From Escherichia phage CSP1C: 55,550 nucleotides of DNA. The position numbers and the translations under genes are program-made. Positions within the stretch are counted from its first letter, which is position 1, and the number at the start of each line of letters is the position of its first letter. The notes beneath the pieces were generated by a model. It saw only the letters and a program-made list of their open reading frames with translations. It searched no databases and was not told where the DNA came from. The stretch is taken from the sequence record PQ202980. One strand, given 5' to 3'. Shown here piece after piece: positions 6,141-38,348 of the stretch.

Positions 6141-6278
6141 TCATGGAAATGAGCCATAGACAATATGTGTTGTGGCTCCTCCGACGTAATAGAAAACGGC
6201 GTCAAGAAGACGCCGTTTCTGTTCCTGAAGAAGAGCTCCCGCCACTTATCCCTACAACCATCGCAATGAGGAAGAAAG

Positions 6279-17891: not shown

Positions 17892-18062
17892 ATGGCAACT
17901 CGTTTACGTGGTACTTTAGTTGATGGTTTAAATAAACCAATTGTCAACGCTACAGTTGCGCTTTTAGCAAAAGGGAATAGCTTATTGGTATTGTCCGGCA
18001 GTGAAGCTATCTTTAAAACAAGTGCAACCGGAACAACCTGTAGAAGCTCGCGAACATATTAG
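17892..18062 (+). CDS. small ORF with transthyretin-like N-terminal signature (possible gene remnant)
   Basis: 56 aa starting MATRLRGTLVDGLNKPIVNATVAL; SD GGGAGA; another open frame continues to about 18165. Confidence 0.3.
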   Translation: MATRLRGTLVDGLNKPIVNATVALLAKGNSLLVLSGSEAIFKTSATGTTCRSSRTY

Positions 18063-20232: not shown

Positions 20233-20261
20233 TATATTAAAACAGACCCGCGAAGGGTCTG
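20233..20261 (-). terminator. terminator-like hairpin after polymerase gene
   Basis: CAGACCC gcgaa GGGTCTG stem followed on the minus strand by TTTTAATAT. Confidence 0.45.
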
Positions 20262-20271
20262 CAAGTAGAAT

Positions 20272-22257
20272 TTAGGCATATCCCATGTCTTCGAGATACT
20301 TCTCTGCTTTAGCTATATAAGCATCATAATCTATGTCGTCCGGTATTTTATCCGGTAGCGTCATGATTGGGACACCTCCCGCGCTACCAGCTACACGGTT
20401 GCCCGAGTTAGCATAGATTATTTCGGGAGTTTCTTCATTGGTGCTTAAATACCAGCGTACAACCTTACCCAAAAATTCGCCATTCCATACCGCGCCGCCT
20501 TTCACCGCACGTAGGATAATGAATTTTCTAATATCGTTGCAATTGCGTATAGTACGAGAAACAGGCGTACCGTGGGCCAAACATTCACATACAGCTTCCA
20601 TAATAATTTCACCAGTACAGTTCTTTTGAAGCCCTGTTTTCGCGAACCAGCCTTTACGTTTAATTTCAACATTTCCTTCCTCATCAGGTTCTTTTACTGC
20701 AACATAGTTATTGACGTTAGCACTGTACAGCTTGTCATAGTAGTTGGATTCCATTTCAAAGCCTGTCACAGACTCCCACCACTTGATCATGTTATCAACG
20801 AAGTCCTGCATGTGGTCAGGATACTTAACCACAATACCATCCGTGTTAGCTGAAATTACTTTAACACCGTTCAGCTCAAACGCTTCAATGAGCATTAACA
20901 GCGATAGCTGTCCGGTGATAGTTACCTGTATCAATAATTGCGGCGCGTACAATACAGACCACATTGAACCCAATTTACCGAACGATCCGTTGATTACGAT
21001 CTTCAGCGTGTTGGCTGTGTTCTTGTCCCCTGAGTGCTTAGCCGCAATACGACGGTCTACAATGCTTTTATAAACACGAAGGAACGCTGGTCCCAACTGT
21101 TCGGGGTATAAGCCCTGATTAAGAATAATTGAAGGGTAATAGGACGTTACGTCAATGTCCCGCTTCTTAATACCGGGCTCTTTACCGTGACCAGCACACT
21201 CTTCGGAGCTATGCAAACCGCCAATACCCATACGGTACACACCGTCCGCAATCTTGATTTCAAGGCCTGTTAACGCTGGGGGCAAGCTAACGCCACCGTT
21301 ATCGCTAACAACAAAGCGGCAGTCCCGAACAATATCCAAAACACTATTCATCAGAGGTGTTTGAAAACGAATAAAGTCCGGTATGTTATACGCATACTTT
21401 GTTCCAGGATAAACTTGTGGACGCTGGGGACGCACACCAGTTAACGCTTGAATTTCGTGTTTAATTACGTCTTCTGCAATCTGCGCATCAGAACGTGAAC
21501 GCAGATCCACACCGTATTCTTGCGACATAATTTCACGAAGGTGCAAAGGCTCTTGCAATGCAATAAAACATTCTTCCGTCTGTACAAGGTCGTTAATACA
21601 GTACCAGCGTACAATCAACATCTGGTCCTGCGTCAACATTGTATTTGGCTTGAACGGTAAATCCTGCATACGGCGAGTATGTACACGTCCGCCATATTGT
21701 TTCAAACCACCGGACCCAGGCAGCACTTCCATAATATCAATGTGGTTAACGTTCTGCATACGCTTAAGGCGGTAACTCTTCAACACATCAGAAGGACGCC
21801 AGTCTTCAACGATTATCTTATCGGTTGCATCTTTAAGCTGAGCATTAGAGCAGCCGTTAAGCGCAAGCGTAGCAATTGGCATATCGTACCCGTTACCGTT
21901 AAAGCTTACGATAAGGAAGTTTGTCATTATCCAGTTAAGTAACAAGCAATTCAAACTACAACCGTGATACATTTCGAAGTAGACAACTTTCTTAGTCCGT
22001 ACTCCGCGAAACGCGATTAAGAAATAGTTTGGATAACATTCAATATCGTATACAAGCGGTTCGCGGTTAATCCATGCTTGAATAAGTTCGTCCTGCGTAT
22101 ACAGGTTGTATTGGAAGTTCCGCGCTTCCTCTAAGTTTGGCAGATAATCCGGACGTTCCCAAGTGCGCTCCGGCGGTAAACGCTTAACCTTTTCTTTCTT
22201 TGCTTTTGGCTCAGGCGGTAAGTCCTGCCAAAAGAAACCAATAGCATCTGTCCGCAT
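20272..22257 (-). CDS. DNA polymerase, family B
   Basis: Motifs DVTSYYPSIIL (motif A type), KIVINGSFGKLGS (motif B type), ISANTDGIVV (motif C type); ATG 22257 overlaps upstream stop. Confidence 0.8.
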   Translation of the reverse strand: MRTDAIGFFWQDLPPEPKAKKEKVKRLPPERTWERPDYLPNLEEARNFQYNLYTQDELIQAWINREPLVYDIECYPNYFLIAFRGVRTKKVVYFEMYHGCSLNCLLLNWIMTNFLIVSFNGNGYDMPIATLALNGCSNAQLKDATDKIIVEDWRPSDVLKSYRLKRMQNVNHIDIMEVLPGSGGLKQYGGRVHTRRMQDLPFKPNTMLTQDQMLIVRWYCINDLVQTEECFIALQEPLHLREIMSQEYGVDLRSRSDAQIAEDVIKHEIQALTGVRPQRPQVYPGTKYAYNIPDFIRFQTPLMNSVLDIVRDCRFVVSDNGGVSLPPALTGLEIKIADGVYRMGIGGLHSSEECAGHGKEPGIKKRDIDVTSYYPSIILNQGLYPEQLGPAFLRVYKSIVDRRIAAKHSGDKNTANTLKIVINGSFGKLGSMWSVLYAPQLLIQVTITGQLSLLMLIEAFELNGVKVISANTDGIVVKYPDHMQDFVDNMIKWWESVTGFEMESNYYDKLYSANVNNYVAVKEPDEEGNVEIKRKGWFAKTGLQKNCTGEIIMEAVCECLAHGTPVSRTIRNCNDIRKFIILRAVKGGAVWNGEFLGKVVRWYLSTNEETPEIIYANSGNRVAGSAGGVPIMTLPDKIPDDIDYDAYIAKAEKYLEDMGYA

Positions 22258-23210
22258 TAGACACGTTCTCCAATTAATACACCGCGAAGATTTTCCCCAA
22301 AGAATGCGCAAGGTTGCGGATATAAACTAAAGTCCGCAGTCTTAACCACATTTTCAAGCAATAGCAGGATATCAATATTGTACACTCCCGTTATTGTTCG
22401 GTCCTGTAATACGAAGCTTGCGCCTTCTGCATCGTCATAATGAGTACGCGCCAGACCGTTTTCAATATATACACGCGGTCGGTCTTCTGCGAACGGTTTA
22501 ATTTTATGTAAGCCTTCAAAAAGACCTGGATCAACAGGATGTGCATTGCATTGAACATTTAAAATACGACGTATATCGGGCCACTCTGCATCAATAAGCT
22601 GTGTGCGCAACCAGCGACCTTCCGGATAATGAAACGTTACGTTATTTTTACTGACCTGAATATGTGTCGGGTTAGCTTTAATACGCAGTATTTCTTTAAT
22701 TGCAACGGAAGGTATTATGCAATCGATAGGGAACTGATTACCAAACCAGTATTCCGCAATAGTGACGTTATTTGTAGCAAAAAGACTACCGTTATTAATC
22801 AGGATACCGCAAGCCCACGGACGGGAAGCATCGGACCCAACAAATGGAGCAACGGACTTTACACCATGCACGAAGCGAGCACCGTCTATTTCGTACAAAT
22901 CACCTTCAGGGAATACGTGAGGCGTTTCCTTGTCAATGCAGCGTATAGCAACACGAAACGGTCCGGACTTGATATTAAGTTTACCGTTAGCCATCATTGT
23001 TAACTGTACGGTTTCGTCACAGTTTGAAATAGCTTTAATCATAGGCCCAGCTTCGGGCTTGCAATCAATATCCAGCTCGATAGGGCTACCCAGTGCAATA
23101 ACACCGTTAAAGCCTTGAACCTGTCCGTCACGGATAAGAAAGCTAGTAAGCCCTTCTACCAGTTCCTTTTTAGCGACGGAGCCTTGAACAAATTTAAGAG
23201 CGTCTAACAT
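22257..23210 (-). CDS. DNA polymerase sliding clamp-like protein (DnaN-like)
   Basis: 317 aa; segment LIDAEWPDIRRIL resembles the beta-clamp LVDGRFPDYRRVL region; immediately upstream of and coupled to the polymerase gene. Confidence 0.55.
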   Translation of the reverse strand: MLDALKFVQGSVAKKELVEGLTSFLIRDGQVQGFNGVIALGSPIELDIDCKPEAGPMIKAISNCDETVQLTMMANGKLNIKSGPFRVAIRCIDKETPHVFPEGDLYEIDGARFVHGVKSVAPFVGSDASRPWACGILINNGSLFATNNVTIAEYWFGNQFPIDCIIPSVAIKEILRIKANPTHIQVSKNNVTFHYPEGRWLRTQLIDAEWPDIRRILNVQCNAHPVDPGLFEGLHKIKPFAEDRPRVYIENGLARTHYDDAEGASFVLQDRTITGVYNIDILLLLENVVKTADFSLYPQPCAFFGENLRGVLIGERV

Positions 23211-23437
23211 TAGCGATCCTCGATTGCTCTAATTGTGGTTAAATCTAATTCACAGGTTGGAGGGTATCCATAAAGTCCCATTTGTTTTCCTTGTGCATTA
23301 AACCATGTGCCTGACGGATCCTGCCACTGCTTAGGTGTCTTGTGGAGAAATACTACTCTGTTTTCACCGTAATAATTAATTCTTACGCCTGTGTGAGTAT
23401 ATTTACGTTTACCTTTTGGTCTTCTTAAGTTAGCCAT
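23210..23437 (-). CDS. hypothetical small basic protein
   Basis: 75 aa; ATG 23437 overlaps dpdA stop, its own stop overlaps the clamp ATG. Confidence 0.45.
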   Translation of the reverse strand: MANLRRPKGKRKYTHTGVRINYYGENRVVFLHKTPKQWQDPSGTWFNAQGKQMGLYGYPPTCELDLTTIRAIEDR

Positions 23438-24357
23438 CAAAATAACTCCATTACACGATCACGGAATGTGCCGTCATGGGTAGCGTTAATGTTTGCAGCA
23501 ATTACACCATACGCCCATAAGTTGAAGGCAGCACGTGATTCATAGATTGTTGATAAACGTTCGTAAGTGAAACCGTTTTGCTCAAGGTATTTAAGGACAG
23601 CGTCTTGTTCAATTTCAGTTAATGTTGACACATGTTTACCAAAATGATGGCGGTCCGGTGACTTATCTGATACGCGCATTGGTCCCCACGGAGGAGTAAC
23701 CACACTTCCAAACGCTGCCGCTTGAATCCAGGAGGATGAGTCGCAGCTATACCACGGGTAACGCTCCATAATGGTCGTAGACGTAATACCAAATGCATGA
23801 AGCTTAATCTTAGGGCGACCGCTACCATCGCAAATGTATTTGTCCCACATGCGGTCCAGCCAAGTCTTAAGCGTGTCCGTTGAACGCCCTACCATGCCCC
23901 CAATGGTGATATATTCGTAGTTCTTCATGTAGTATTCAAGATAGCGGAAGTCCTCACCAAAGTGAAAGCATGGTAACGGTTTGGCGCCTCGTGCTTCCAT
24001 TTCAAGCTGGTTACGGTAGGTTTGCAGTGGGTCCCCGATACCATCAAGTACCGATGCCATTACCGCACCATCTTCTACCCGCAGAATATCTTTGTTGCGC
24101 TTGATGTACTCGCAGTATTCAACAATATCAATATGAGCACCCAAAGAGTGCGCAGAGAATGCACCGGAGTCGAGAAACACTTTAGCCCCGTCCGCACGCA
24201 TTTGATCAACATACTTCTGACGCCCAACGTAGTGGTATGATTCCAAAATATGGGGCAGATTGCGCGTGATATTTTTCTCATGCTCCGACAGCTTTTCATA
24301 ACGCTGCTGTCCAGGCATATATCCGTTTGTGTAAACTGCTGCCATAAAAACGTTCAT
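23437..24357 (-). CDS. dpdA: DpdA-like tRNA-guanine transglycosylase homologue (7-deazaguanine DNA insertion)
   Basis: 306 aa; TGT-like protein sitting beside folE/queD/queC/queE. Confidence 0.65.
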   Translation of the reverse strand: MNVFMAAVYTNGYMPGQQRYEKLSEHEKNITRNLPHILESYHYVGRQKYVDQMRADGAKVFLDSGAFSAHSLGAHIDIVEYCEYIKRNKDILRVEDGAVMASVLDGIGDPLQTYRNQLEMEARGAKPLPCFHFGEDFRYLEYYMKNYEYITIGGMVGRSTDTLKTWLDRMWDKYICDGSGRPKIKLHAFGITSTTIMERYPWYSCDSSSWIQAAAFGSVVTPPWGPMRVSDKSPDRHHFGKHVSTLTEIEQDAVLKYLEQNGFTYERLSTIYESRAAFNLWAYGVIAANINATHDGTFRDRVMELF

Positions 24358-24360
24358 GAC

Positions 24361-24567
24361 TTACTCCACGTTGTTTAAAGCTACTACTTCAATGAGATAA
24401 TTTTCTTTCTTAAAGCATTGCTCGCTTAAGATTTGTTCAACTCTAACATGTAGATCCGCATGAATTTGTTTTGCGTTACTGCTTTCAGCAATACCGTCCA
24501 TACATAACAGAACTCTGAAAGTACCTTTTTCTACAGCTCGAACGTTGAAAAAGTATTGTCTTACCAT
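24361..24567 (-). CDS. hypothetical small protein
   Basis: 68 aa from ATG 24567 with SD GGAGG; between folE terminator and dpdA. Confidence 0.4.
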   Translation of the reverse strand: MVRQYFFNVRAVEKGTFRVLLCMDGIAESSNAKQIHADLHVRVEQILSEQCFKKENYLIEVVALNNVE

Positions 24568-24582
24568 ATTTCCTCCAATGAC

Positions 24583-24620
24583 TAAAAAGCCCATACCAGT
24601 ATTATGACCGATATGGGCTT
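24583..24620 (-). terminator. rho-independent terminator after folE
   Basis: 9 bp stem AAGCCCATA / TATGGGCTT followed on the minus strand by TTTTT. Confidence 0.55.
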
Positions 24621-24638: not shown

Positions 24639-25226
24639 TTATTTACAAGCTTCAAGGAACTCCCGGCGCCATTCTTTACCAATATCGCTACCATGCTCCA
24701 GTTCTGTAGCGCCCCGGAACGCTTTGGTAATAGTAGAGCTACCACATACCTGCTTAACTCCGCGCGACTCCATGCACATATGTTTGGCGTCAATATAAAC
24801 GCATACAGCTTTCGGATTTAGGTGCTCCACAATAGCATCCGCAATCTGGTTAGTAAGTCTTTCCTGTACTTGTAAGCGACGTGAAAAAGCATCCACCACG
24901 CGAGACAGCTTACTAAGACCGACAATGCGACCGTTGGGGACGTAGCCAACCACAGCACGCCCAATAATAGGGGCCATGTGATGCTCGCAATGACTGTATA
25001 CAGGAATATCGCGGACAATGACCATTTCATTCGAACCTTCCGCACCATCTTCAAAGGTTTTAAACAATCCAGCGATATTTACATCGTAACCACCGAACCA
25101 TGTAGCATAAGCTTTAGCTACACGTGACGGAGTTTCTTGTAAGCCTTGACGCAGAGTAGGTGAAGCATGGTCTTCAATATTAAACAACAGGGACATCACA
25201 GCGTTTTCAACAGCTTTAATATTCAT
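24639..25226 (-). CDS. folE: GTP cyclohydrolase I
   Basis: 195 aa with hallmark HCEHHMAP motif and overall FolE-like sequence. Confidence 0.85.
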   Translation of the reverse strand: MNIKAVENAVMSLLFNIEDHASPTLRQGLQETPSRVAKAYATWFGGYDVNIAGLFKTFEDGAEGSNEMVIVRDIPVYSHCEHHMAPIIGRAVVGYVPNGRIVGLSKLSRVVDAFSRRLQVQERLTNQIADAIVEHLNPKAVCVYIDAKHMCMESRGVKQVCGSSTITKAFRGATELEHGSDIGKEWRREFLEACK

Positions 25227-25261
25227 GGTTTGCAGTTTCCTTGTTTGTTAATGTGGTCATA

Positions 25262-25795
25262 TTACAGGCTATAGTTTACGTGACATTTCGAAGTTTCTTC
25301 GATGGTGCATTCTACAAGTTGAACACCATGTTCGTCAAGCAGTTGCGGCCCAATTACGTTAACCATATATGCAGCTAAATTTTCCGCAGTCGGGTTGAAC
25401 GGTAAAGACACCAGCGAGTTGTCAAAGTCCCTTACATCTTGACCCGTAGTTTCGTCACAAAGTTCACAATCAACCTGAAGAGCTTTAATCAAAGGATCTT
25501 CTTCCCAATGCAGGAACTTATGATCCCAATTATCTTCCAACCACTGGCAGAGTGTAGTTTTAACCACACTAAAGTCAATCACGCGCCCGACGCGGTCCAG
25601 CTTAGCGCGCTCTTTTACTTCAACGTTAACAAGACCTCCGCCCATTTCAATTGGTACTTCTTTGACTGTTTCTTTCGGTGCAACCTTAAAGTGAAACTTA
25701 TAGTTGTGACCGTGAAGGTGACGGCACTTGCTTTCATGACCAACAACACGATGCCCAGCGCAAATTTCATGTGAACGAATTACTGTATAGCTCAT
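25262..25795 (-). CDS. queD: 6-carboxy-5,6,7,8-tetrahydropterin synthase
   Basis: N-terminal CAGHRV..HGHNY motif characteristic of the PTPS/QueD family; longer than bacterial QueD. Confidence 0.8.
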   Translation of the reverse strand: MSYTVIRSHEICAGHRVVGHESKCRHLHGHNYKFHFKVAPKETVKEVPIEMGGGLVNVEVKERAKLDRVGRVIDFSVVKTTLCQWLEDNWDHKFLHWEEDPLIKALQVDCELCDETTGQDVRDFDNSLVSLPFNPTAENLAAYMVNVIGPQLLDEHGVQLVECTIEETSKCHVNYSL

Positions 25796-26382
25796 TTTAA
25801 TACCTCTTTAGACTGTTCAATTTCTAATGCACGCTGTGCGGATGCAATAATATCTTTCAAATCTTCTACCAGACTTTTATGACCACGTTCGCCCGGCTGC
25901 AACGCCTTTTTAATCAAATGTTGTAAAGCTGGGTTAGTTGTTTTCCAAGCTTCCAAGACATCATACACGTCCACGATGCATTTTACAACATTGCCGTTTT
26001 CATCTTTACCATAAATAATTTTCTGATATTTATTCATGGGAATTTTAGATGGTTCATATTTGGTAAAAACTGCACCATTAAATGTATTACTTATGCTTAT
26101 TCCAGAAGAAGGTTGATGGTACACTCCGGAGCGAGTGTTTTCGCTGGCTTGTTTGACGTAATCATCCGCAACGATATATCGCCAGGCTATAATATCTTGA
26201 ACTTTATAAGGGCTATATTCATCCATAGCTGAACGCCCTTCTATAGCCCAATCCCATCCATGTAATAAATTCTTAACGTGTGTGCCGTTGCGCAAACGAA
26301 CTTCAAACTTCTCATTACGAAGAAAAATAGGCATTCCTTTACCGTCGTGTTGGTGCCAAATTTTATTAAGATTATCTTTCAT
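25792..26382 (-). CDS. hypothetical protein embedded in 7-deazaguanine cluster
   Basis: About 196 aa; ATG 26382 couples to upstream stop, own stop overlaps queD ATG; no recognisable catalytic motif. Confidence 0.5.
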   Translation of the reverse strand: MKDNLNKIWHQHDGKGMPIFLRNEKFEVRLRNGTHVKNLLHGWDWAIEGRSAMDEYSPYKVQDIIAWRYIVADDYVKQASENTRSGVYHQPSSGISISNTFNGAVFTKYEPSKIPMNKYQKIIYGKDENGNVVKCIVDVYDVLEAWKTTNPALQHLIKKALQPGERGHKSLVEDLKDIIASAQRALEIEQSKEVLK

Positions 26383-26383
26383 T

Positions 26384-26863
26384 TTACGCTCTCGCTGTAC
26401 GTGAATGAACTTCGTAAACAACCCAAAGGATGGCAGATGCTGTGAACTTGCTTAAGCTCATTGCTACCATTGATCCCGGATTAACAATACCTATAATACT
26501 TAAGAACACAATGGAGTCAATCGGTACAGCTACCAAAGAGCTAATAAATACACGTTGATGAAACGGCTTCTTAGTAATCGTGTATACCGCATAGTCCGCA
26601 AACTCACTGAGGGCAAAAGACGCAACTGATGCAACTACAACAGCAGGATCCCCAAATACCCAGCTAAGGATACAACCGACAATCATTGCAGGGATAACAC
26701 CTTTACCTGCGTTACGCTGTGCATAGTCGCGCAACACAAAGATAATACCTACAAAGAAAGCCATCATTGGGACTACGCCAAGCGGCGTGTTAAGCATTGG
26801 AAGGTAGGAAAAGCCCAGGTTTACGAATGTAATTGCAGCCAGATAAGCAACGATAAATTTCAT
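26384..26863 (-). CDS. putative queuosine-precursor transporter (YhhQ/DUF165-like) membrane protein
   Basis: 159 aa polytopic membrane protein from ATG 26863 (SD GGAGAA); location inside the preQ0 gene cluster. Confidence 0.5.
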   Translation of the reverse strand: MKFIVAYLAAITFVNLGFSYLPMLNTPLGVVPMMAFFVGIIFVLRDYAQRNAGKGVIPAMIVGCILSWVFGDPAVVVASVASFALSEFADYAVYTITKKPFHQRVFISSLVAVPIDSIVFLSIIGIVNPGSMVAMSLSKFTASAILWVVYEVHSRTARA

Positions 26864-26983
26864 ACTTTTGTTCTCCAGTTTTAACAGCGTTATTCGCTGG
26901 TTGTTGGGTTTAAAAGCTTTAGTAGTATAGTTGGGTTCCCGCACCCTAAACAATGCGCTAGCGGTGCGGTTTTCGCGGTAAGA

Positions 26984-27691
26984 TCAAGCTTTGCTAATAA
27001 ATTCGCTGTACCCTTTAGCACGCAGTTTGCACGCAGGGCATTCACCGCAACCATAGCCCCAGTCATGCAGAGTGCGACGGACGCCGTTATAACACGTATG
27101 GGACTGCTCAATTACTGTGGTTAAGAAGCCAACCTTATCCGCCAGCTCAAACGTTTCTGCTTTATTTAAACGCATAAGCGGGGTAACAAAATGAATATCT
27201 GTTTCATATCCAACGTTTAACGTAGCTTCAAGAAGATCAACAAACTGCTGGCGACAATCCGGATAACCGCTATAGTCTGTTTCACAAACGCCTGTAACCA
27301 CATATCGGGCTCCAACTTTCTGCGCGTAGGCGTGCGCGGTAGTCAGGAAAAGAGCATTACGGTTTGGCACAAAGCTAGCCGGAAGGTTTTTGTGCTGTTC
27401 GTGATGTTCGTTAACATCACCTTCGTTCCCGATTAAAGCGCTATTACCAATCTGTTTCAAAGCAGGTAATTCAAAGACAACAAATGGGACATCGTGCTCT
27501 TTACAGATCTGTTCAGCGCAAGCCAATTCCACAGTGTGACGTTGACCGTATGCAAAACCAATAGCGTAAACCTTATCATAGTTATTAAGTGCAAGACCTA
27601 AACAGGTCACGCTGTCCTGGCCGCCAGACAGGACGACAACGGCGGAGTTATGATTTTTTACAGGGAATACCAGTTTATCTAATTTATTCAT
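26984..27691 (-). CDS. queC: 7-cyano-7-deazaguanine synthase
   Basis: PP-loop VVVLSGGQDS and C-terminal Zn-binding Cys cluster CYNG..CGECPAC; ATG 27691. Confidence 0.85.
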   Translation of the reverse strand: MNKLDKLVFPVKNHNSAVVVLSGGQDSVTCLGLALNNYDKVYAIGFAYGQRHTVELACAEQICKEHDVPFVVFELPALKQIGNSALIGNEGDVNEHHEQHKNLPASFVPNRNALFLTTAHAYAQKVGARYVVTGVCETDYSGYPDCRQQFVDLLEATLNVGYETDIHFVTPLMRLNKAETFELADKVGFLTTVIEQSHTCYNGVRRTLHDWGYGCGECPACKLRAKGYSEFISKA

Positions 27692-27692
27692 T

Positions 27693-27881
27693 TTAGAAAC
27701 CTTTAAGGCTAATATTAAGATTAACGACCACTTGTTCAACTACATCATCAGATGTCATCTGACGCTTATGAATTTCAAGCTCCGAATGTATGTTCTTGGA
27801 TGCAGCACGACAGATAGCGTCATTCAGCTCGTCTTGTAAACGTTGCATCTTCTGCATAAGAATCACAGTCTCTTCATTCAT
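27693..27881 (-). CDS. hypothetical small protein (paralogue of 27874..28086)
   Basis: 62 aa, SD AAGGTG; shares ELN.AI..A....EL.I pattern with neighbouring gene. Confidence 0.4.
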   Translation of the reverse strand: MNEETVILMQKMQRLQDELNDAICRAASKNIHSELEIHKRQMTSDDVVEQVVVNLNISLKGF

Positions 27882-28086
27882 CTTCTACACCTTTAATATC
27901 ACAAGGATTGATTGTTACAGTTGACATCACAATTGGATGATTGCGTGCCCCGATTGTACTAACGTGATTAATATCTAATTCTACATGCACTCCCTGCATG
28001 GTAGCGTGAGCAATTGCAGAATTAAGTTTTTCTACCAGCTCAGTGATCATTTCCTGATGCTGTTTCGCTTCTTCCAAAGTGATCAT
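27874..28086 (-). CDS. hypothetical small protein (paralogue of 27693..27881)
   Basis: 70 aa, SD GAAGGTG; alternative ATG at 28050. Confidence 0.4.
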   Translation of the reverse strand: MITLEEAKQHQEMITELVEKLNSAIAHATMQGVHVELDINHVSTIGARNHPIVMSTVTINPCDIKGVEDE

Positions 28087-28342
28087 TTCTTTTCACCTTC
28101 ACTAATGTTTGTTTATAATCCATACCTTCAAGGTCAACTTCTGCCATTTCACAAAAGTTATCATCTTCCCAGTATGATGTCCATTTAGTTTGACTGTCCA
28201 TCAACGTTGGCTCATACTCGAATCCGTAAACTGTACCGTCTTGATCCGTAGCCAGCCACCGTACCCATTCAGGGACATCAAGCTTATTGCCAAAGTATTC
28301 AACTTCTTTAGTATGAACAACCTGACTTAATACACGCATCAT
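28040..28342 (-). CDS. hypothetical protein, member of 3-copy paralogous family
   Basis: 100 aa; VPEWVRWLATDQDGTVYGFEYEPT and EVDLEGMDYKQTL shared with ORFs at 49334 and 50172. Confidence 0.45.
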   Translation of the reverse strand: MMRVLSQVVHTKEVEYFGNKLDVPEWVRWLATDQDGTVYGFEYEPTLMDSQTKWTSYWEDDNFCEMAEVDLEGMDYKQTLVKVKRNDHFGRSETASGNDH

Positions 28343-29046
28343 TCCACCCCGATATATTTGTGAACCTGAAGCTGCAACGTGTACCCGTGTTTCATACAGC
28401 TTTTGACAACCGCTTGGATGTTACTGTGGTTAAGGTCTTCATCCTGCTCGTCCATTGGCTGTAAATATATCTTACCCTTGAACCCCTTCGGAGGTCTAGC
28501 GATAAATGGTGTAGCTTGATGATCTAATGCTTGAAGAGGCAAACCATCTTCCACGTTTACACAGCACGCTTTAAGTACATATTTAAATGCATTAGCGCGG
28601 TACAGCACAGAAGGATGAATCTTTGAGGTCTTGGGGCTACATACAATGACAGGTAGCTGGGAAAAGTCCTTCGGTAAAGGCATAGACCCATTAGTTTCAA
28701 TCTGTACCAAATACCCGCGCGATAACAGTTGTTCGACAAAAGGGTTAATTTGCTGACGGAACGGTTCACCACCAGTGATAACCACAAGTGAGGTGCTATT
28801 GCCTGATTCCAGCTTACGGCTTTCGATTAAACGCATGATATCAACAATGTGGTAAAGAGAACGACCTACAGTATAATCAGTATCACAGCCCGGACATTGC
28901 AGGTTACACCCAGCAAGTCGCACAAATACAGCAGGCTGGCCGCAGAATGGACCTTCACCCTGAATGGTAGAGAATACCGAATGCACGTCTAAATACATAT
29001 CGTTTTCTTTAGAACGAGACTCGGGAGCTTGTTGATTAATATTCAT
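28339..29046 (-). CDS. queE: 7-carboxy-7-deazaguanine synthase (radical SAM)
   Basis: Cys motif CNLQCPGCDTDY and VVITGGEP typical of QueE. Confidence 0.85.
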   Translation of the reverse strand: MNINQQAPESRSKENDMYLDVHSVFSTIQGEGPFCGQPAVFVRLAGCNLQCPGCDTDYTVGRSLYHIVDIMRLIESRKLESGNSTSLVVITGGEPFRQQINPFVEQLLSRGYLVQIETNGSMPLPKDFSQLPVIVCSPKTSKIHPSVLYRANAFKYVLKACCVNVEDGLPLQALDHQATPFIARPPKGFKGKIYLQPMDEQDEDLNHSNIQAVVKSCMKHGYTLQLQVHKYIGVE

Positions 29047-29061: not shown

Positions 29062-29090
29062 GAAAAAGAAAGCGCCTCATTGGGCGCTTT
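29062..29090 (-). terminator. rho-independent terminator
   Basis: AAAGCGCC tcattg GGCGCTTT stem followed on the minus strand by TTTCTTTTTC. Confidence 0.6.
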
Positions 29091-29115
29091 CATTATAACG
29101 TGATATGTTTTGATA

Positions 29116-29919
29116 TTACAAGCCGTTCAGGGCTTCCGGTACTGGTACAGGTACGCGACCAGTCACACCATTAAATTTCTTCCAGCGTGCATACTGGGTT
29201 TTAACGGTATCTTCGTTCAAACCATGGCGACCAGCCAGGTTCAGAACATAAGAGATCGGAGCAGGCTGACCCAGCGTAGCGCTAATCTGGTCCATCAGAG
29301 CCCAGGCACGACCGCAGGAAGTTTCCGGTTGTGGACGACGAACACCGTTCTGTTCCGGCATACGATTAGCTTCTTTTTCTTTCTCGCGGAGCTCTTTAGC
29401 GCGTGCTTTTTCCGCTTCTTTTTCTGCCTGTTTTGCAGCACGGATCTTGTCTTTGAAGCCTTTAATAGTAGCTTCCAGACCATCCACCAGACCCTGGGCA
29501 GAAGTTACAGCACCGGACAGGTCTTCACCTTTAGACTTCTTAACGACAGCTTTCAGCTCTTTCAGAGCTTCTTTAATGGTCTTCAGGTTTGCAGATCCCT
29601 GAGTTTCTGCTTCCGTGATTTGTTCAACAGTGCTTTCGTCGGTGACGGTAGCTAAAGAGTTTTTCAGGATTTCAGCAGCGTTAGCAATCGCATTAAATTT
29701 GTTTTCCGCTTCAGTGCGGATTTCAGCTTGTTTCTTTTCAGCGGCAGCTTTTTTCTCTGCTTCTTTTTTCTCTTTTGCTACGCGTGCAGCTTCAGCGGCA
29801 GCGGCTTTCTTAGCTTCTGTATCATTCACAGTAGCTTCTTTCTTTGCAGGTTTAGCAGATTTTGCAGCGGCAGCAGCGGCAGCAGCGGCAGCGGCTTTTT
29901 TATCTTCAATGTTGCTCAT
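29116..29919 (-). CDS. Ala/Lys-rich low-complexity protein with conserved C-terminal domain (histone-like / DNA-binding candidate)
   Basis: ATG 29919 (track start 29928 is GTG); polyAla run plus KKAAAEK repeats; C-terminal TVKTQYARWKKFNG domain shared with ORF 45820..46434. Confidence 0.5.
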   Translation of the reverse strand: MSNIEDKKAAAAAAAAAAAKSAKPAKKEATVNDTEAKKAAAAEAARVAKEKKEAEKKAAAEKKQAEIRTEAENKFNAIANAAEILKNSLATVTDESTVEQITEAETQGSANLKTIKEALKELKAVVKKSKGEDLSGAVTSAQGLVDGLEATIKGFKDKIRAAKQAEKEAEKARAKELREKEKEANRMPEQNGVRRPQPETSCGRAWALMDQISATLGQPAPISYVLNLAGRHGLNEDTVKTQYARWKKFNGVTGRVPVPVPEALNGL

Positions 29920-30046
29920 TCTCTTCACTCCGAATTGTTATGGGTTCGTTTGTTACCAACGGGGTTAAATGTACCAAAGGATTTTGTGACACGCAACCCC
30001 TTATCCGAACATTTTTAAAAATATTTTTGATCAAGCTTAGAACTTA

Positions 30047-30541
30047 TTAGCTCTTTGCCCCTCTGCCCGGCGTCCATGCAGCTTGCAATGCGGGTCGCTC
30101 ACAAATGACCCTGGCACCGGAAATAATACCACCCTCCCGTTCAGCATCGTATTTGACACGGGCAGGTTTCCAAAGTCCTTCATCCATTGACGGAACGTAT
30201 TGCCCAATTTGAGGTGAGCAAAAGCCTTGGATATCGTATTCCACACAGAATTCGGCTTGTGCGCTGATTTGGGCGTGATCCAGGATTGTTTCTGGAAGTT
30301 GCGTAAAGTAATCAAACAAAATGCGCTCAACGATTTCCCGTTCATAAGGTGCAGCTCCTAAGTTTTCTGTCAAGTTAATATAAAGCATTTGAAGATCAAC
30401 ATCTTCAAGATTGTGTAAATCGTCTACTGGTGTTACCAGTGTTGACTCAGGGCAACAAATAATTCCAAGTTGGTGTAGTGTCAGCCAATTGGGATGCTTT
30501 GCCAAGAGTTCAAATTTATCTGTGTCAATTAGGACGTACAT
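30047..30541 (-). CDS. hypothetical protein
   Basis: 164 aa ORF downstream of helicase. Confidence 0.45.
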   Translation of the reverse strand: MYVLIDTDKFELLAKHPNWLTLHQLGIICCPESTLVTPVDDLHNLEDVDLQMLYINLTENLGAAPYEREIVERILFDYFTQLPETILDHAQISAQAEFCVEYDIQGFCSPQIGQYVPSMDEGLWKPARVKYDAEREGGIISGARVICERPALQAAWTPGRGAKS

Positions 30542-30600
30542 TGCAATCCCCTATAAATAAGTAATGCCCCAATAGTAGGGGCATTAGATGTTGAAGTCAA

Positions 30601-32577
30601 TTAGAACGGAACGTAATCCGGATCATCTACTTGTACAGGGTTAACCACATTGTTCACCGTTATGCCTTGCGTATTCTGTGAAACAATATCATCCCAGCTC
30701 ACATCATCATTATAGCTTGGACCTTCTGTTGTTCCATCCTGCCCGTATACTTTAACTTGAATAGCTTCGTCGTCCTGTGGAGCTTCAAACTTACCGAAAC
30801 ACGTACCATCATAATCGTAGTTCAATATCTCAGGCCATTTCTTATTGGTATGAACTTTGATGTATTTCGGTGTTTTAAGCATTGCAGCAACATCAAGAGC
30901 TTCTTCAATAGTTTGTGGTAAAGGAAGATGCGTCCTTTTCTTCCACCATGCAACCGCTTTACGACCTGCCCAGTCACCATGAAGTAGAGCTACCCATTCG
31001 CTGAATATTTTACTACCGCAATAATAAGTCACCTTCATTGTTGGAGGTTTGGAGCTGTCATTGCGTTTAGTGTGCTTCGCATAAGTAACATGCGTAACTT
31101 TAAAGTCTTCAACTACAGGAATGTCCTGCTTAATCAATGCTTCGGTACTTGCTGCCTTTTTAAGTTTGGTTTGGAACTTAAACTCATGACCGCAAAATCC
31201 TTCTTTAACATAATCCGTTCCACGTAGTCTGAATCCCTTCAAATATAATTGTTGAACTTGTTCCTGTGTAACGCTGTCCATAGGAATTGGTGCAAAGCCA
31301 CCGCAATAGCGAGCAGATGCATGATTATACGACCCGCACACATCGCATTCTTTAACCGGAGCAGTACCAGCACCTTTTTCGCCCGGGCGCTTGGGTTTAA
31401 CAGGGTCGTTAATAGGTCCCAAACGGCGCGTATTACCGCTGAAATCCAGTACAAGGCAGTTCTGCTTAGGACTTGCTGCAATAGCTTGCAAGCGACCTTC
31501 CTGCGTGGAAAGATCAAAGCCCTCCGCATATACCGGACGCGTACCGCGACCCAACATCTGAACCCATAGCACCGCCGAGGCAGTTGGGCGAAGCATGATA
31601 ATCAGATCAAGCATTGGATGGTCGAAACCTGTGGTTAAGACGTTGTTGTTTGTCAGCGCTCGAAACTCTCCACGCTTGAACTTTTCAATAATTTCATCAC
31701 GCTCTTTTGCATCAAGCTTTGAGTGAATACATCCGCAACTAATACCCATATCGTTCAGCATATCACACGCATCTTTAGCGTGTTCAATACCAGAACAAAA
31801 TATAAGCCAGCTTTGACGGTCTTCACCACATTCAATGGCTTCCTCAAGTGCGCGGAGTGTTGCGTCGTCGCGGTTTACCGCACTTTGTAGCTCACTCTGG
31901 ATAAACTCACCGCCGCGTTTCCCTACACCATTGAGGTCTAGTTCCATCTTTGTACGCTTTGGCACAACCGGAAGCAAATAGCCTTGCTCCAGGAACCAGT
32001 TAAAGGCTTCAGGGGTAGTTGCATCAAACGTTACTTTATCAAATAAAGCATCATCGTCTTTGTTTTCCTTAACAATTGAACCGTAACCCAGTCGGTAAGG
32101 TGTAGCAGTAAGACCGATAATTTTTAAATACGGGTTAACTTCACGCAATGCTGCAAAGAACTTCTTATACATTGTTGCATCACGCGGACTAATAAGGTGC
32201 GCTTCATCCACAAAGATTAGATCAACCTTGCCGAACTTTTTAGGATGCTTAGCAACAGATGCAATCCCCGCAAATGTGATAAGATTATAGACTTCTTTAC
32301 GCTTCAAACCTGCGCTGTAAATACCTGCTGGCGCTTCAGGCCAGACTTTCATTAATTTATCATAGTTTTGTGCAATTAACTCTTTGACGTGAGTTAACAT
32401 CATTACGCGCTGGTTTGGATACCATTTATAAAGCAGATCGAGGAACCCCGCGATAACGAGCGATTTTCCTGTCCCTGTTGGTAACAGGATCAAAGGGTTC
32501 CCCGCGTTACCCTTTTCAGCATCAAAATAGCGGAATACGCTATAAACTGCTTCCTGTTGATAATCGCGGAGCTGCAT
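30601..32577 (-). CDS. SF2 DEAH-type DNA helicase
   Basis: Walker A PTGTGKSL and DEAH box FVDEAHL; ATG 32577 (track start is TTG); C-terminal Cys-rich region. Confidence 0.8.
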   Translation of the reverse strand: MQLRDYQQEAVYSVFRYFDAEKGNAGNPLILLPTGTGKSLVIAGFLDLLYKWYPNQRVMMLTHVKELIAQNYDKLMKVWPEAPAGIYSAGLKRKEVYNLITFAGIASVAKHPKKFGKVDLIFVDEAHLISPRDATMYKKFFAALREVNPYLKIIGLTATPYRLGYGSIVKENKDDDALFDKVTFDATTPEAFNWFLEQGYLLPVVPKRTKMELDLNGVGKRGGEFIQSELQSAVNRDDATLRALEEAIECGEDRQSWLIFCSGIEHAKDACDMLNDMGISCGCIHSKLDAKERDEIIEKFKRGEFRALTNNNVLTTGFDHPMLDLIIMLRPTASAVLWVQMLGRGTRPVYAEGFDLSTQEGRLQAIAASPKQNCLVLDFSGNTRRLGPINDPVKPKRPGEKGAGTAPVKECDVCGSYNHASARYCGGFAPIPMDSVTQEQVQQLYLKGFRLRGTDYVKEGFCGHEFKFQTKLKKAASTEALIKQDIPVVEDFKVTHVTYAKHTKRNDSSKPPTMKVTYYCGSKIFSEWVALLHGDWAGRKAVAWWKKRTHLPLPQTIEEALDVAAMLKTPKYIKVHTNKKWPEILNYDYDGTCFGKFEAPQDDEAIQVKVYGQDGTTEGPSYNDDVSWDDIVSQNTQGITVNNVVNPVQVDDPDYVPF

Positions 32578-32579
32578 AA

Positions 32580-33488
32580 TCAATCTTTCCCGTAATAGTT
32601 AGCCACTTGATAGTTTTGACAACCAACTTTTTGACCCTGCGTATCTACTGCAACGGAATGGAAATTGCAATACCATGTTCCATCATCTTTTGGCTCAAGA
32701 AATTGACATGTGCGACAGTTTACTTCCGGCATAGTTTTACGCCAGCACAATGAGGCGTGATCGCACCATTTGCATTCGAAGAAGGTAGAGTCTTTGAATG
32801 CACGGTCAGGAATATCCGTAGCAATAGCAATCTGCACACCACGATCAATATACATGTCCGCAGTGACCGGATCAAATGGAATAATTTCTGCGTAAACTTC
32901 ATCATCGTTCTTGTTTACAGCAAGATATAACGCTGCGCCAAGTCCTAGCTTTCGCATGTACACGTTCATCTGTACATAGTGCTCAGGTTTAGCTTCTTTG
33001 ACACCTTTAGCTTTCAGTTTCTTGAAAGACTTATCGTTGTGGGTCTTCATTTCAGTAAGCACAGGCATCCCAGGCTGAACGTCCGGACAACCTATAACCA
33101 CACCATCGCAGGAACCGCCAAAGTGTCCGCCAGCTTCGCTAATACGGAACTGGTGTCCGTTTTCATCCTGCTGGTAGACCTGCATACCTGCCGCAAGAAG
33201 CATAGCAATGAAACGCGCTTCTTCCAGATGTCCGCGGTTAAATAGGCGGAGCTGGCGTCCATCGAACTCTTTACGAGTAGCCCAGCGATACCCGTAGAAC
33301 AGCTTGCGAGCACATTGTTGTCCAATAAGGGAAGCACCTAAGTGACTGCGGTTGCCGCTTTCGGGGCGATATGCGTCTTCAATTGTGGGAATGACTACGC
33401 CAAGATATTTACGGTAAGTCCCACCCTGATCTTTTTGCACACCGTCATTGATTGCTTGAAGTGTTTTTTCTGCAATATAAATAGCCAT
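32580..33488 (-). CDS. PD-(D/E)xK nuclease with C-terminal Cys cluster (Cas4/RecB-like exonuclease)
   Basis: DGVV...LTEMKTH D/E-K arrangement plus four C-terminal Cys (CKWCDHASLC, CRTC). Confidence 0.55.
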   Translation of the reverse strand: MAIYIAEKTLQAINDGVQKDQGGTYRKYLGVVIPTIEDAYRPESGNRSHLGASLIGQQCARKLFYGYRWATRKEFDGRQLRLFNRGHLEEARFIAMLLAAGMQVYQQDENGHQFRISEAGGHFGGSCDGVVIGCPDVQPGMPVLTEMKTHNDKSFKKLKAKGVKEAKPEHYVQMNVYMRKLGLGAALYLAVNKNDDEVYAEIIPFDPVTADMYIDRGVQIAIATDIPDRAFKDSTFFECKWCDHASLCWRKTMPEVNCRTCQFLEPKDDGTWYCNFHSVAVDTQGQKVGCQNYQVANYYGKD

Positions 33489-33499
33489 TGGAGTACCTT

Positions 33500-33527
33500 A
33501 GAAAAATAAGCCGTCTTTCGACGGCTT
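33500..33527 (-). terminator. rho-independent terminator
   Basis: AAGCCGT ctttcg ACGGCTT stem followed on the minus strand by TTATTTTTC. Confidence 0.55.
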
Positions 33528-33552
33528 AGGGACACTACAGAGGGAGGTTAAC

Positions 33553-34422
33553 TTACTGCTGCCACGGCGGGACTGCTGCTTGTGCCGGATGCGGTTCAGC
33601 TTGCTGCTGTGGCTGCGCTTGCTGCTGCGGTGCTGCTGCCTGACCCGGCTGTGCTACCTGCTGCGCCCATGGCTGCTGAGCTGCTTCCGGCGCTACTGGC
33701 TGTTGTACCGGAGCTTGCTGAACTGGCTGCTGCGGCGCTGCGTTTTGAGCAGGATTATCCCACGGCTGCGGTGCGGCATTCTGCCACGGTTGAGCTGCTG
33801 CGCCCTGCTGCGGTGCTGGTTGCTGAACAGGCTGCTGTTGCTGTACCGGAGCTTGCTGCTGTACAGGTGCTTGCTGTTGCTGAGCAAACGGGTTAGCTGC
33901 TGGCTGCTGCGGCGCTGCGCCCGGGAAAGTTGGCTGCTGTGCTGGCGCACCTGCACCGAACGGGTTAGCTACTGCTGGAGCGCCCATTGATGGAGCCTCT
34001 GCTGCTTTTTCTGCATACTTAACCGGATCGTTGATGTTAGCGTAACCGTTCGGCTCGTTGCTGTCTTCATAACCTTCCTGAGAACGAACTTTCAGACGCA
34101 GGTTCAGCGGAATGTTATGCAGTTGAGCAGGAGTATCCCAGCGAATTACACCTACTGCGTGGGAAAGTGCGCCCAGTTGCTCATAAGCGATACGCACAGT
34201 ATCTTCATTGTCGTTGATGACGTTGTAGCGAGCGAAGATTTTACGACCTTTAGCAAAACCGTCAATGATGCTAAACGTTACCTGGATCGCCATACCGCCA
34301 TTTTTGGTCGGTTTAAATTCAGATGCTTCAATTACTGCTTTATACCAACCTTTCGGCAATGCGCCGTAAGAAGGTGCTTGATAGCTGCTCGCGTCAAAGT
34401 GGAAATTAGTTGGCATAGTCAT
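33553..34422 (-). CDS. SSB-like (DUF669-type) protein with Q/P/A-rich C-terminal tail
   Basis: Globular N-terminal ~150 aa, then ~140 aa low-complexity tail with repeated PW motifs; adjacent and coupled to Sak4-like ATPase. Confidence 0.5.
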   Translation of the reverse strand: MTMPTNFHFDASSYQAPSYGALPKGWYKAVIEASEFKPTKNGGMAIQVTFSIIDGFAKGRKIFARYNVINDNEDTVRIAYEQLGALSHAVGVIRWDTPAQLHNIPLNLRLKVRSQEGYEDSNEPNGYANINDPVKYAEKAAEAPSMGAPAVANPFGAGAPAQQPTFPGAAPQQPAANPFAQQQQAPVQQQAPVQQQQPVQQPAPQQGAAAQPWQNAAPQPWDNPAQNAAPQQPVQQAPVQQPVAPEAAQQPWAQQVAQPGQAAAPQQQAQPQQQAEPHPAQAAVPPWQQ

Positions 34423-35150
34423 TAGTTGATACCTTTCATTTTGTTGATAACAGAACCTAAGTGTGGGACTTCAACCGCATCTAAACGTCCCGAACGATCC
34501 TTAGCGATTGTATTAAAGTCCGGTTGAGTTTGCAAGTAACGATATGAGTTACCTTGCTGATCCTTATTTACATTCAGACGAAACACTTCGTCGAAGAAGT
34601 AAGGGAGCATTTGCCCCAATTTGGACCCAGGCATAGATGGAGCATACGCGGTAACACCGGAGACTTCATCTTTGTCTTTGCCCATTTTAGCAGACATATA
34701 AACATGTTTGCCAGGAATATCGCGAAATTTACGGATCAGATCTTGCATCTTTTCAAGCAAAGTACCATAAGCTTGACGAGGATCTTTTGTTCCTTTTTTC
34801 GCATTGTTTAAACATTGTTCAGCAATTTCGCTCAAGCTGTCAAGCGCAATAGAATCGAAATACTGCTGGTTAGCTGGAGTTATACACCACTGATAAGCAG
34901 CTTCAACGTCCTCCAGACATTTAACTTCAATAACTGGGATATCATAAACGATCGGCAATCCCATGTTACCATAAACGCGATTAAGGTTTTCCGCTGCAAT
35001 AGATAACAGACCGGACTCTGCGCTGATCAAAATTGGTTTAGGTAGTGTGGCTACAAGGCTGGTTTTACCCATACCCGCTTCACCGTAAACCAGAATTTTA
35101 ACGCCTGTGTCTTGCACTACTTGTGAAGACATTTTAATTTCAATGGCCAT
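34422..35150 (-). CDS. Sak4-like RecA-fold ATPase (single-strand annealing / recombination)
   Basis: Walker A GEAGMGKTS near N-terminus, ~240 aa, typical pairing with a DUF669/SSB-like gene. Confidence 0.65.
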   Translation of the reverse strand: MAIEIKMSSQVVQDTGVKILVYGEAGMGKTSLVATLPKPILISAESGLLSIAAENLNRVYGNMGLPIVYDIPVIEVKCLEDVEAAYQWCITPANQQYFDSIALDSLSEIAEQCLNNAKKGTKDPRQAYGTLLEKMQDLIRKFRDIPGKHVYMSAKMGKDKDEVSGVTAYAPSMPGSKLGQMLPYFFDEVFRLNVNKDQQGNSYRYLQTQPDFNTIAKDRSGRLDAVEVPHLGSVINKMKGIN

Positions 35151-35215
35151 TTAACGCCTCTCTTTTAAGTTCGTGCTCATTGTAACGTAATATACTTTGA
35201 ACCCTCAATTACTTT

Positions 35216-36130: not shown

Positions 36131-36131
36131 A

Positions 36132-36755: not shown

Positions 36756-36799
36756 TGTTTTTCCTTAATAAACAGGGGGTCGAAAGACCCCCTTGTAAG

Positions 36800-37030: not shown

Positions 37031-37041
37031 TATTCCCCCGT

Positions 37042-37833: not shown

Positions 37834-37874
37834 TTTAGTTTCCTCTTGGGCGGATTGACCGCCCGTTAATGTGG

Positions 37875-38285: not shown

Positions 38286-38348
38286 TTTTCTGTCCTCTGT
38301 TGTGTTTCGATGTATGTATAATAGCACATCCATGTGCTTAGGCAAGAC

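Follow-up and report, generated by a model that had tools for sequence, protein, structure and literature searches.

Escherichia phage CSP1C: a probable dpdA–sliding clamp–polymerase operon whose DpdA carries a candidate clamp-binding tail

Introduction

The bacterial beta sliding clamp is bound by a range of client proteins that use the motif QL[S/D]LF, among them Pol IV, the alpha and delta subunits of Pol III, MutS and Hda, and in eukaryotes a DNA-modifying enzyme, DNMT1, is recruited to the clamp PCNA via its PIP box. In the bacterial Dpd system the DNA transglycosylase DpdA, whose tRNA-guanine transglycosylase (TGT) superfamily chemistry the phage enzyme shares, works with DpdB, a ParB-like ATPase. 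Here we analyze a stretch of 55,550 nucleotides (nt) from Escherichia phage CSP1C (PQ202980; this whole stretch is called the window below), in which a gene for a phage DpdA is followed on the minus strand by an open reading frame (ORF) of 75 amino acids (aa), a sliding clamp gene and a family-B DNA polymerase gene. A 4.3-kb query from this locus is 100% identical to Cronobacter phage CSP1 (KY982929.1) and 93–96% identical to ~30 Seuratvirus phages including CAjan, and we refer to the locus as that of CSP1, a CAjan-like Seuratvirus.

In E. coli Pol II and UmuC this clamp-binding motif reads QLGLF and QLNLF; the QL[S/D]LF consensus is usually C-terminal, and its Leu-Phe pair inserts into subsite 1 of the clamp (PMC3716654). 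A DpdA with the Protein Data Bank (PDB) entry 7UI4 is mentioned in PMC12137116. In phage CAjan a dpdA deletion loses all preQ0 modification, dPreQ0 at GA and GGC motifs depends on DpdA, and D63 and D206 (Asp206 as nucleophile) are predicted to be catalytic (PMC7544227). The genes discussed here, their order, function and annotation are already known in a described phage genus, and overlaps between neighboring genes are routine. What would be new, should the docking proposed below be true, is that DpdA joins the known class of clamp clients.

The CSP1 locus resembles the beta-clamp systems in two respects. DpdA ends in a short Leu-Phe peptide on a flexible terminus, usually with a Gln 3–4 residues earlier, and the phage clamp that would be its partner has the DnaN fold with the pocket segments apparently kept. 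It differs from them in that the candidate client is a base-exchange transglycosylase, a class that we did not find reported as a client, in that the clamp is phage-encoded and shorter than E. coli DnaN (317 vs 366 aa), and in that the CSP1 tail, VMELF, has no Gln. DNMT1 and PCNA offer an analogy only: the concept of a clamp-tethered modifier that marks newly made DNA is the same, but the clamp family, the motif, the chemistry (methyl transfer vs base exchange) and the organism all differ.

We think it rather probable that the four genes belong to an ordinary co-transcribed operon with a functional link through docking of DpdA on the phage clamp. The operon part of this reading is well supported. 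The more specific proposal, that DpdA is a previously unrecognized clamp client which binds the cleft of the DnaN-like clamp with its (Q)xxLF tail, we hold to be about evenly poised. The evidence for a link between DpdA and the replisome is mostly at the protein level, in the clamp-binding-like tail, and not in the start/stop overlaps.

Results and Discussion

The C-terminal tail of DpdA

Comparison of DpdA C-termini carries most of the argument. All 13 compared phage DpdAs have Leu-Phe (LF) at the end or within 2 residues of it (RVMELF, IQELF, QMELF, QMGLF, EQRLF, DPVLF, QGKLF), the gp7 DpdA of Streptococcus phage Dp-1 ends in QRRLF, and 115 of the 120 closest DpdA homologs end in LF. Among 150 representatives of 50%-identity clusters, 45 (30%) have an [LFM]F end, against 0.76% expected from composition; these 45 have Q at −5 in 24 cases and at −4 in 11, and F at −9 in 24, so that the tail pattern reads F-x3-Q-x-x-L-F-COOH. 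No [LFM]F-type end occurs among 120 clamp homologs or among 120 polymerase homologs. The putative (Q)xxLF motif matches the bacterial beta-clamp-binding consensus, and in some DpdAs the tail is exactly consensus-like (QMELF, QMGLF, QRRLF). In the AlphaFold2 model of CSP1 DpdA the last helix ends at residue 293 and residues 294–306 are coil, the last six with a predicted local distance difference test score (pLDDT) of ~53.

The Leu and Phe codons of the tail differ synonymously between phages, and the motif is kept without an overlapping downstream Shine-Dalgarno site in Dp-1, Flasso, Erebus, JenK1 and a further locus, L024. On these counts and codon differences, the motif is conserved beyond chance and beyond nucleotide-level constraint. 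The literature searched contained no link between DpdA and a sliding clamp, no clamp-binding-type DpdA tail and no statement that the stop/start overlaps are important.

The clamp cleft and the polymerase N-terminus

An hhalign comparison of the phage clamp with E. coli DnaN, in which identity is ~15–20% and residue mapping is approximate, places W210-P211-D-I-R-R215-I216-L on F241-P242-D-Y-R-R246-V247-L, FAT146NN on VAT172DG, and the C-terminal GVLIGERV on YVVMPMRL. The WPDIRRIL and C-terminal strand segments are ones that we take to line the DnaN peptide cleft between domains II and III.

Near its N-terminus the polymerase has a further peptide that is a candidate for clamp binding, with a Pro/Lys-rich linker behind it. 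The pattern D-x-x-G-[FLMI]-F-W is found at residues 4–10 in 118 of 120 polymerase homologs and in all 12 cross-lineage polymerases, and some relatives read ALGLF there, resembling the QLGLF of E. coli Pol II. By its position and residues, D-x-x-G-F-F-W looks like an N-terminal clamp-binding peptide. Within the Cas4-domain exonuclease CSP1_075 (32580–33488, minus strand), at residue 79, stands a QLRLF that agrees perfectly with the clamp-binding consensus.

Conservation of the dpdA–clamp neighborhood

The order dpdA–(0–3 unrelated small ORFs)–clamp–(0–2 ORFs)–polymerase is found in Nonagvirus, Iggyvirus, Nipunavirus, Vidquintavirus and Amoyvirus, and in phages of Vibrio, Stenotrophomonas, Shewanella, Aminobacter, Sphingomonas and Synechococcus. 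The step from dpdA to clamp is kept down to 31% DpdA identity, in Bacillus phage Flasso, and in metagenomic phages that have a UDG-PolA enzyme in place of PolB. Phage Dp-1 also keeps dpdA followed by dnaN, with an annotated terminator and promoter between them, and in both of these phages of Gram-positive hosts dnaN is directly followed by a cas4-like gene and no polymerase gene is adjacent.

Two DpdAs, those of Rosebush and phiSM, have a ParB-like gene directly adjacent and no LF tail (loci L017, 1–1946, and L018, 3396–4570, respectively). The 4.4 kb of Rosebush that were read contain no clamp gene; phiSM has one ~2.5 kb downstream of dpdA. The ParB-like neighbors recall bacterial DpdB. In CSP1 the screen covered the same-strand genes queE through polymerase, and no ParB/DpdB-like gene is among them. 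These arrangements suggest that DpdAs have two alternative helper strategies, ParB-like or clamp, and that the phage DpdA engages DNA with a helper other than DpdB, the sliding clamp being its conserved neighbor.

It is also conceivable that there is no special link at all, dpdA standing beside the clamp and polymerase genes as one of the early/middle DNA-metabolism genes of a compact, vertically inherited module, with the LF pair serving folding, oligomerization, another partner or DNA. In favor of this, the Iggy paper notes only that deazaguanine genes adjoin polymerase genes (PMC10484667), many of the compared phages come from one broad group, Queuovirinae and allies, and ΔdpdA phages and escapers with DpdA missense mutations replicate normally. 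The pairing of dpdA with the clamp gene nevertheless persists at 31% identity, in Gram-positive phages and with another polymerase family, while the intervening genes turn over. The motif follows the last helix on a low-confidence tail that is unpacked in the model, its family-wide pattern agrees with the well-defined clamp-binding consensus in both residue identity and position, and it is missing in Rosebush and phiSM, the two checked DpdAs that are not immediately beside a clamp gene. We consider the absence of any special link unlikely, and most likely dpdA stays beside the clamp gene for a physical reason, namely that DpdA works on the clamp.

Several observations weigh against docking and deserve to be set out together. 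The CSP1 tail itself, VMELF, keeps Leu-Phe but not the Gln of the consensus. The codons for Gln-Glu in the Queuovirinae tails, CAG-GAG (ATG-GAG in CSP1), also serve the following gene as its Shine-Dalgarno site, and part of the tail conservation may therefore be at the RNA level. Four longer DpdAs without a terminal LF (P0316, P0292, P0334 and P0364) are also followed by clamp genes. These four carry a QMVSLF-, NMDLF-, GDLL- or MRPLF-type peptide ~70 residues before the end, with a stretch behind it that weakly resembles the N-terminus of DpdA, so the motif is not always terminal, and it might have a structural role instead. Motif-bearing DpdAs have a clamp gene nearby in ~20/20 cases, but the correlation is strong one way only; a clean two-way correlation between LF tail and clamp neighbor was considered and fails on the four longer tail-less DpdAs. 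Adjacency could reflect mere shared membership of a replication module. Finally, no clamp loader was recognized among the seven replication-module proteins checked (window 29116–44468).

The longer DpdAs bear on the structural alternative. A subfamily of them (P0316, P0292, P0334, P0357, P0361 and P0286; loci L026–L028) starts at the equivalent of about residue 58, and its ~70 extra C-terminal residues weakly match the N-terminal segment of DpdA (hidden Markov model positions 25–53, E 0.05–1). Circular permutation of the TIM barrel may account for this subfamily, the LF peptide then lying in the linker that joins the old chain ends. Such an arrangement, in which an internal LF is joined to an N-terminus-like segment, would fit a structural contact between the chain ends, in favor of the explanation without a special link. 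One tail-less member, P0357, has a GFSLF peptide.

Other oddities were seen among the DpdA homologs. Six of them (P0245, P0248, P0264, P0267, P0284 and P0311) have insertions of ~310–325 aa at position 204/205, beside Asp206, and the insert of P0248 has a weak LAGLIDADG_3 match (E 0.0018); the insertions are probably inteins. P0279 is a predicted protein of 3009 aa with 49 tandem copies of DpdA residues 31–62, which is an unusual array of repeats if it did not arise in assembly.

A further alternative is that the clamp is chiefly a sliding platform for DpdA and repair enzymes and not a polymerase processivity factor, or that the DpdA tail targets the host beta clamp. The clamp gene does follow dpdA more tightly than it precedes any polymerase type, with PolB or UDG-PolA behind it in some phages and a Cas4-type gene in Flasso and Dp-1; the DpdA motif fits the host-type consensus, and the lack of a recognized clamp loader among the seven proteins checked points the same way. 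Against this stand the D-x-x-G-F-F-W peptide and flexible linker of PolB, whose near-universal presence in the homologs suggests that the polymerase also uses the clamp, and the junction from clamp to polymerase, which is mostly an overlap. We give either version very little credence.

Start/stop junctions and translational coupling

An earlier note on this DNA had described dpdA, the 75-aa ORF, the clamp gene and the polymerase gene as a minus-strand chain of ATGA/TAATG-type start-stop overlaps, and had taken this to suggest stoichiometric co-expression of the base-exchange enzyme with the replisome. Re-translation bears out the one-base chain, with TGATG, TAATG and TAATG at the successive junctions (Table 1). 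The TAATG type is right for two of them; the ATGA type is not found, as the dpdA junction is TGATG, where the dpdA TGA (23439..23437) and the ATG of the 75-aa ORF have one A in common. All three junctions are thus 1-nt overlaps through a shared A, and none of the three is of the 4-nt ATGA type. The deposited coding sequence (CDS) boundaries of CSP1 and CAjan in GenBank give identical one-base overlaps. The polymerase start is most likely ATG 22257, rather than the upstream TTG 22311 chosen by the ORF finder, because a GGAG lies 10 nt upstream and GenBank has the same start.

Table 1. Features of the dpdA–clamp–polymerase region, in window positions
Feature	Position	Strand	Remarks
dpdA	24357..23437	minus	306 aa; DNA guanine transglycosylase predicted to insert preQ0
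ORF, 75 aa	23437..23210	minus	PHROG 38388 only; lineage-specific filler
Beta-type (DnaN-like) sliding clamp gene	23210..22257	minus	317 aa
Family-B DNA polymerase gene, with 3'-5' exonuclease	22257..20272	minus	661 aa
TGATG, dpdA stop / 75-aa ORF start	23439..23435	minus	From re-reading of the strand
TAATG, 75-aa ORF stop / clamp start	23212..23208	minus	From re-reading of the strand
TAATG, clamp stop / polymerase start	22259..22255	minus	From re-reading of the strand
GGAG, Shine-Dalgarno of 75-aa ORF	23446..23449	minus	Within Met-Glu codons of the DpdA tail; anti-Shine-Dalgarno duplex −5.9 kcal/mol
GAGG, Shine-Dalgarno of clamp gene	23218..23221	minus	
GGAG, Shine-Dalgarno of polymerase gene	22268..22271	minus	10 nt upstream of ATG 22257
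DpdA last five codons, V-M-E-L-F-COOH	23440..23454	minus	Candidate beta-clamp-binding motif; disordered tail
Polymerase residues 4–10, D-A-I-G-F-F-W	22228..22248	minus	Second candidate clamp-binding peptide, then Pro/Lys-rich linker
Small ORF upstream of dpdA (68–77 aa)	24361..24594	minus	Stop 3 nt ahead of dpdA ATG
preQ0 pathway genes upstream: queE, queC, yhhQ-like, queD, folE, and small ORFs	24639..29046	minus	
Intrinsic terminator-like hairpin and T-run	20242..20262	minus	Directly after polymerase stop; 8 pairs, 5 of them G-C; probable operon end

Within this genome the chain is unremarkable. Of the 85 same-strand junctions in the CSP1 annotation, 23 show some overlap, by 1 nt in 11 cases and by 4 nt in 5, and at 45 the gap is ≤10 nt. 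When the gap list is shuffled, three or more 1-nt overlaps stand in a row in 12% of trials, or in 36% when 1- and 4-nt overlaps are pooled. The chain of three overlaps shows no excess over chance, and one-base overlaps are a normal compact junction type of the CSP1 genome.

The comparative picture is different. Across 13 lineages (CSP1, JenK1, Iggy, PaMx25, Vid5, MMDA13, R7M, CA8, a Stenotrophomonas phage, S0112, Erebus, Ssp-JY38 and Flasso), in tests that take no account of phylogenetic relatedness, a reservation that also counts against reading a functional link from them, dpdA overlaps the gene behind it by 1 nt in 9/13 lineages versus 19/128 for the remaining junctions in these loci (Fisher p=6e-5), and the clamp gene does so by 1 or 4 nt in 10/13 versus 30/128 (p=2e-4). 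By this count the tight junctions after dpdA and the clamp gene exceed chance.

These junctions could be taken to mean that the stop/start chain enforces coupling, so that DpdA, the small protein, clamp and polymerase are made in fixed, roughly stoichiometric amounts that match the replisome. Three successive 1-nt overlaps, the recurrence of 1- or 4-nt overlaps after dpdA and the clamp gene in ~10/13 lineages compared with ~23% of other junctions, and the absence of a convincing internal promoter or terminator all speak for it, and the junction types are those of translationally coupled bacterial and phage operons (ATGA or TAATG), here with the Shine-Dalgarno site embedded in the preceding gene. 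Overlaps of this kind, on the other hand, make up 13–19% of the junctions in the genome, with a run of three not significant, and the hallmarks of obligate coupling are not seen. A separate GGAG or GAGG precedes every downstream start by 7–10 nt, with predicted anti-Shine-Dalgarno pairing of −5.9 to −6.4 kcal/mol, where the median is −6.35 across the genome and −1.5 kcal/mol at random positions; these are independent sites of about median strength. No structure that would hide the ribosome-binding sites was found, the 81-nt junction RNAs folding at z −0.54 to +0.59 relative to shuffles, so that no ribosome-binding site is either sequestered or missing.

Relatives interpose varying numbers of unrelated ORFs in the chain, which also argues against fixed amounts. 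The 0–3 ORFs between dpdA and the clamp gene are non-homologous between genera, WildeMaa has an extra ORF in the chain (L019, 3139–3375), phiG7 has two ORFs between clamp and polymerase (L020, 2168–2760), and JenK1, PaMx25 and MMDA13 have gaps of 8–51 nt. The small ORF between dpdA and clamp was considered as a conserved partner and rejected: in an all-against-all BLASTP of the interposed ORFs of 13 phages there was no homology except for two unrelated pairs. The extra small ORFs of WildeMaa and phiG7 each join the chain by their own stop/start overlap, and the junctions behave like insertion points for small genes. The distant phages Iggy (L005, 6609–6974) and CA8 (L010, 6618–6971) have a DUF2493 (“GTP-binding domain”) gene between clamp and polymerase; the two genes are 45% identical and share a 1-nt overlap with the clamp stop.

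Genes that overlap in bacterial operons are often several-fold apart in synthesis rate, and it is not obvious why an enzyme that acts catalytically, a ring-shaped dimer and a polymerase should be required at 1:1. The CAjan dpdA deletion supplies a comparison: its genome is 317 bp shorter (59,670 to 59,353) and the deletion shifts the frame, yet the phage is viable and grows to high titre (PMC7544227). In simulations of this deletion, with the deletion ends assumed, the new stop falls 36 or 309 nt before the next start, and the frameshift has no evident polarity as far as phage growth tells. We regard enforced coupling as improbable. Of the earlier proposal of stoichiometric co-expression, then, co-transcription remains likely, on the head-to-tail genes and the terminator after the polymerase gene, while obligate, 1:1 coupling is not supported, in view of the separate Shine-Dalgarno sites, the lack of occluding RNA structure, the variable ORFs and the viable deletion; stoichiometric co-expression by translational coupling is weakly supported. 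It is plausible that DpdA is functionally tied to the replication machinery.

The four genes are likely co-transcribed, because they lie head to tail without a convincing internal promoter or terminator and have a strong terminator after the polymerase gene, the only strong minus-strand terminator in the region. A scan for sigma-70 promoters returned 32 matches versus 26±5 in shuffles, with none above 9/12 inside the chain, and decides nothing about internal promoters. Just upstream of queE on the minus strand, a terminator-like hairpin (29091..29068) directly follows the best promoter-like match of the region (29121..29092, 10/12), and positions 29068–29121 are possibly a boundary and restart of the deazaguanine operon.

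Proposed mechanism

The four genes would form the 3' end of a long same-strand operon, queE…folE–orf–dpdA–orf75–clamp–polB–terminator. Handing over of ribosomes from gene to gene is a probable benefit of the tight junctions, with the output of each gene set by its own ribosome-binding site; outputs would then not be fixed at 1:1, nor would clamp and polymerase depend on translation of dpdA. The phage clamp would receive the flexible C-terminal tail of DpdA in its hydrophobic cleft and would also be bound by the polymerase, by way of the N-terminal D-x-x-G-F-F-W, beside DpdA or alternating with it. Clamps loaded on freshly replicated DNA would recruit DpdA and slide it along, and the clamp-borne enzyme would put preQ0 in place of guanine in its target motifs, which in CAjan are GA and GGC. 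What the data show directly are the overlaps, what the genes encode, the Shine-Dalgarno sites, the synteny, the conserved and disordered motif and, with approximate residue mapping, the kept pocket segments of the clamp; we infer the co-transcription, the ribosome hand-over and the contacts of DpdA and polymerase with the clamp.

Identity of the gene products

The names dpdA, sliding clamp and family B polymerase, as the earlier note had them, are correct by PHROGs, folds and motifs. DpdA matches PHROG 887 (E 2e-96), is 100% identical to the DpdA of Bas24/SeppeHuegi and is at least 99% identical in 29 phage records (other Seuratvirus). Its AlphaFold2 model (pLDDT 94.1) has the TGT-type TIM-barrel fold, with archaeosine TGT and bacterial and eukaryotic TGTs as best PDB matches (E 1e-7 to 1e-4). 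In a 45-sequence alignment D206 is invariant and D63 at least 90% conserved, and both residues are present, as FLDSGA and SCDSSS. The preQ0 synthesis genes folE, queD, queC and queE lie upstream on the same strand. Sequence searches of Pfam and PDB with DpdA and with the 75-aa ORF gave no match, so the identity of DpdA rests on PHROGs, fold and near-identical characterized phages.

The clamp matches PHROG 947 (E 5e-82), and its AlphaFold2 model (pLDDT 92.8, predicted template modeling score 0.86) aligns at full length with the three-domain fold of bacterial DnaN proteins (E. coli, P. aeruginosa and others) in Foldseek, with template modeling scores of 0.82–0.85 and E ~4e-20. By hhalign its residues 1–317 lie on residues 10–366 of E. 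coli DnaN (probability 86.7%). In Pfam it stays below the gathering score, with DNA_pol3_beta_2 alone at 22.3 bits against a cut-off of 27; it belongs to a phage family that has diverged.

The polymerase matches PHROG 1252 (E 9e-229), and phmmer finds S. solfataricus 1s5j (E 1.9e-5), 5mdn and E. coli Pol II in PDB, around motifs B and C. Compared with the family-B signatures (motif A Dx2SLYPS, motif B Kx3NSxYG, motif C DTDS, Exo I DxE), it reads DVTSYYPS at 369, KIVINGSFG at ~419, NTDG at 471 and DIE at 71. Its sole Pfam match, DNA_pol_B_exo2, scores 14.4 bits, below the threshold of 24, and it too is a divergent lineage.

The seven replication-module proteins include an SSB-like (single-stranded DNA-binding) protein, a Sak4-like protein, a Cas4 exonuclease and a helicase, and three match families of unknown function only. 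A metagenomic relative (L029, 10247–10917) encodes a DNA_pol3_delta2/AAA+ protein.

Relation to described phage genomes

DNA identity with CAjan is 93.5% across dpdA, orf75, clamp and polymerase; the small ORF upstream of dpdA is outside this match, and it has no family match in Pfam or PHROGs. With the deazaguanine module folE-queD-queE-queC-yhhQ-dpdA of CAjan and other Seuratvirus (Queuovirinae), the gene order and CDS boundaries are the same and the genes themselves show no difference.

Read as its reverse complement, the window as a whole corresponds to a circular permutation of the CSP1 genome that lacks positions 1610–6267 (~4.66 kb) of the CSP1 record. The deleted stretch takes in the “putative tail fiber” gene CSP1_010, and the flanks of the deletion junction (window 18022–18035 and 19629/19630) have 14 nt in common.

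Implications

The question raised by this locus is how a base-exchange enzyme finds and modifies about a quarter to a third of the phage guanines fast enough to counter restriction; in CAjan nearly all GA and GGC sites are modified. Docking of DpdA on the clamp, if true, would explain why dpdA and the clamp gene are adjacent across distant phages whatever the polymerase family, and why a ParB/DpdB-like helper stands beside the tail-less DpdAs of Rosebush and phiSM. It would add DNA hypermodification to the processes coordinated by sliding clamps, and it would give a handle for engineering or inhibiting deazaguanine modification, with a bearing on phage therapy and on defence systems that sense modified DNA.

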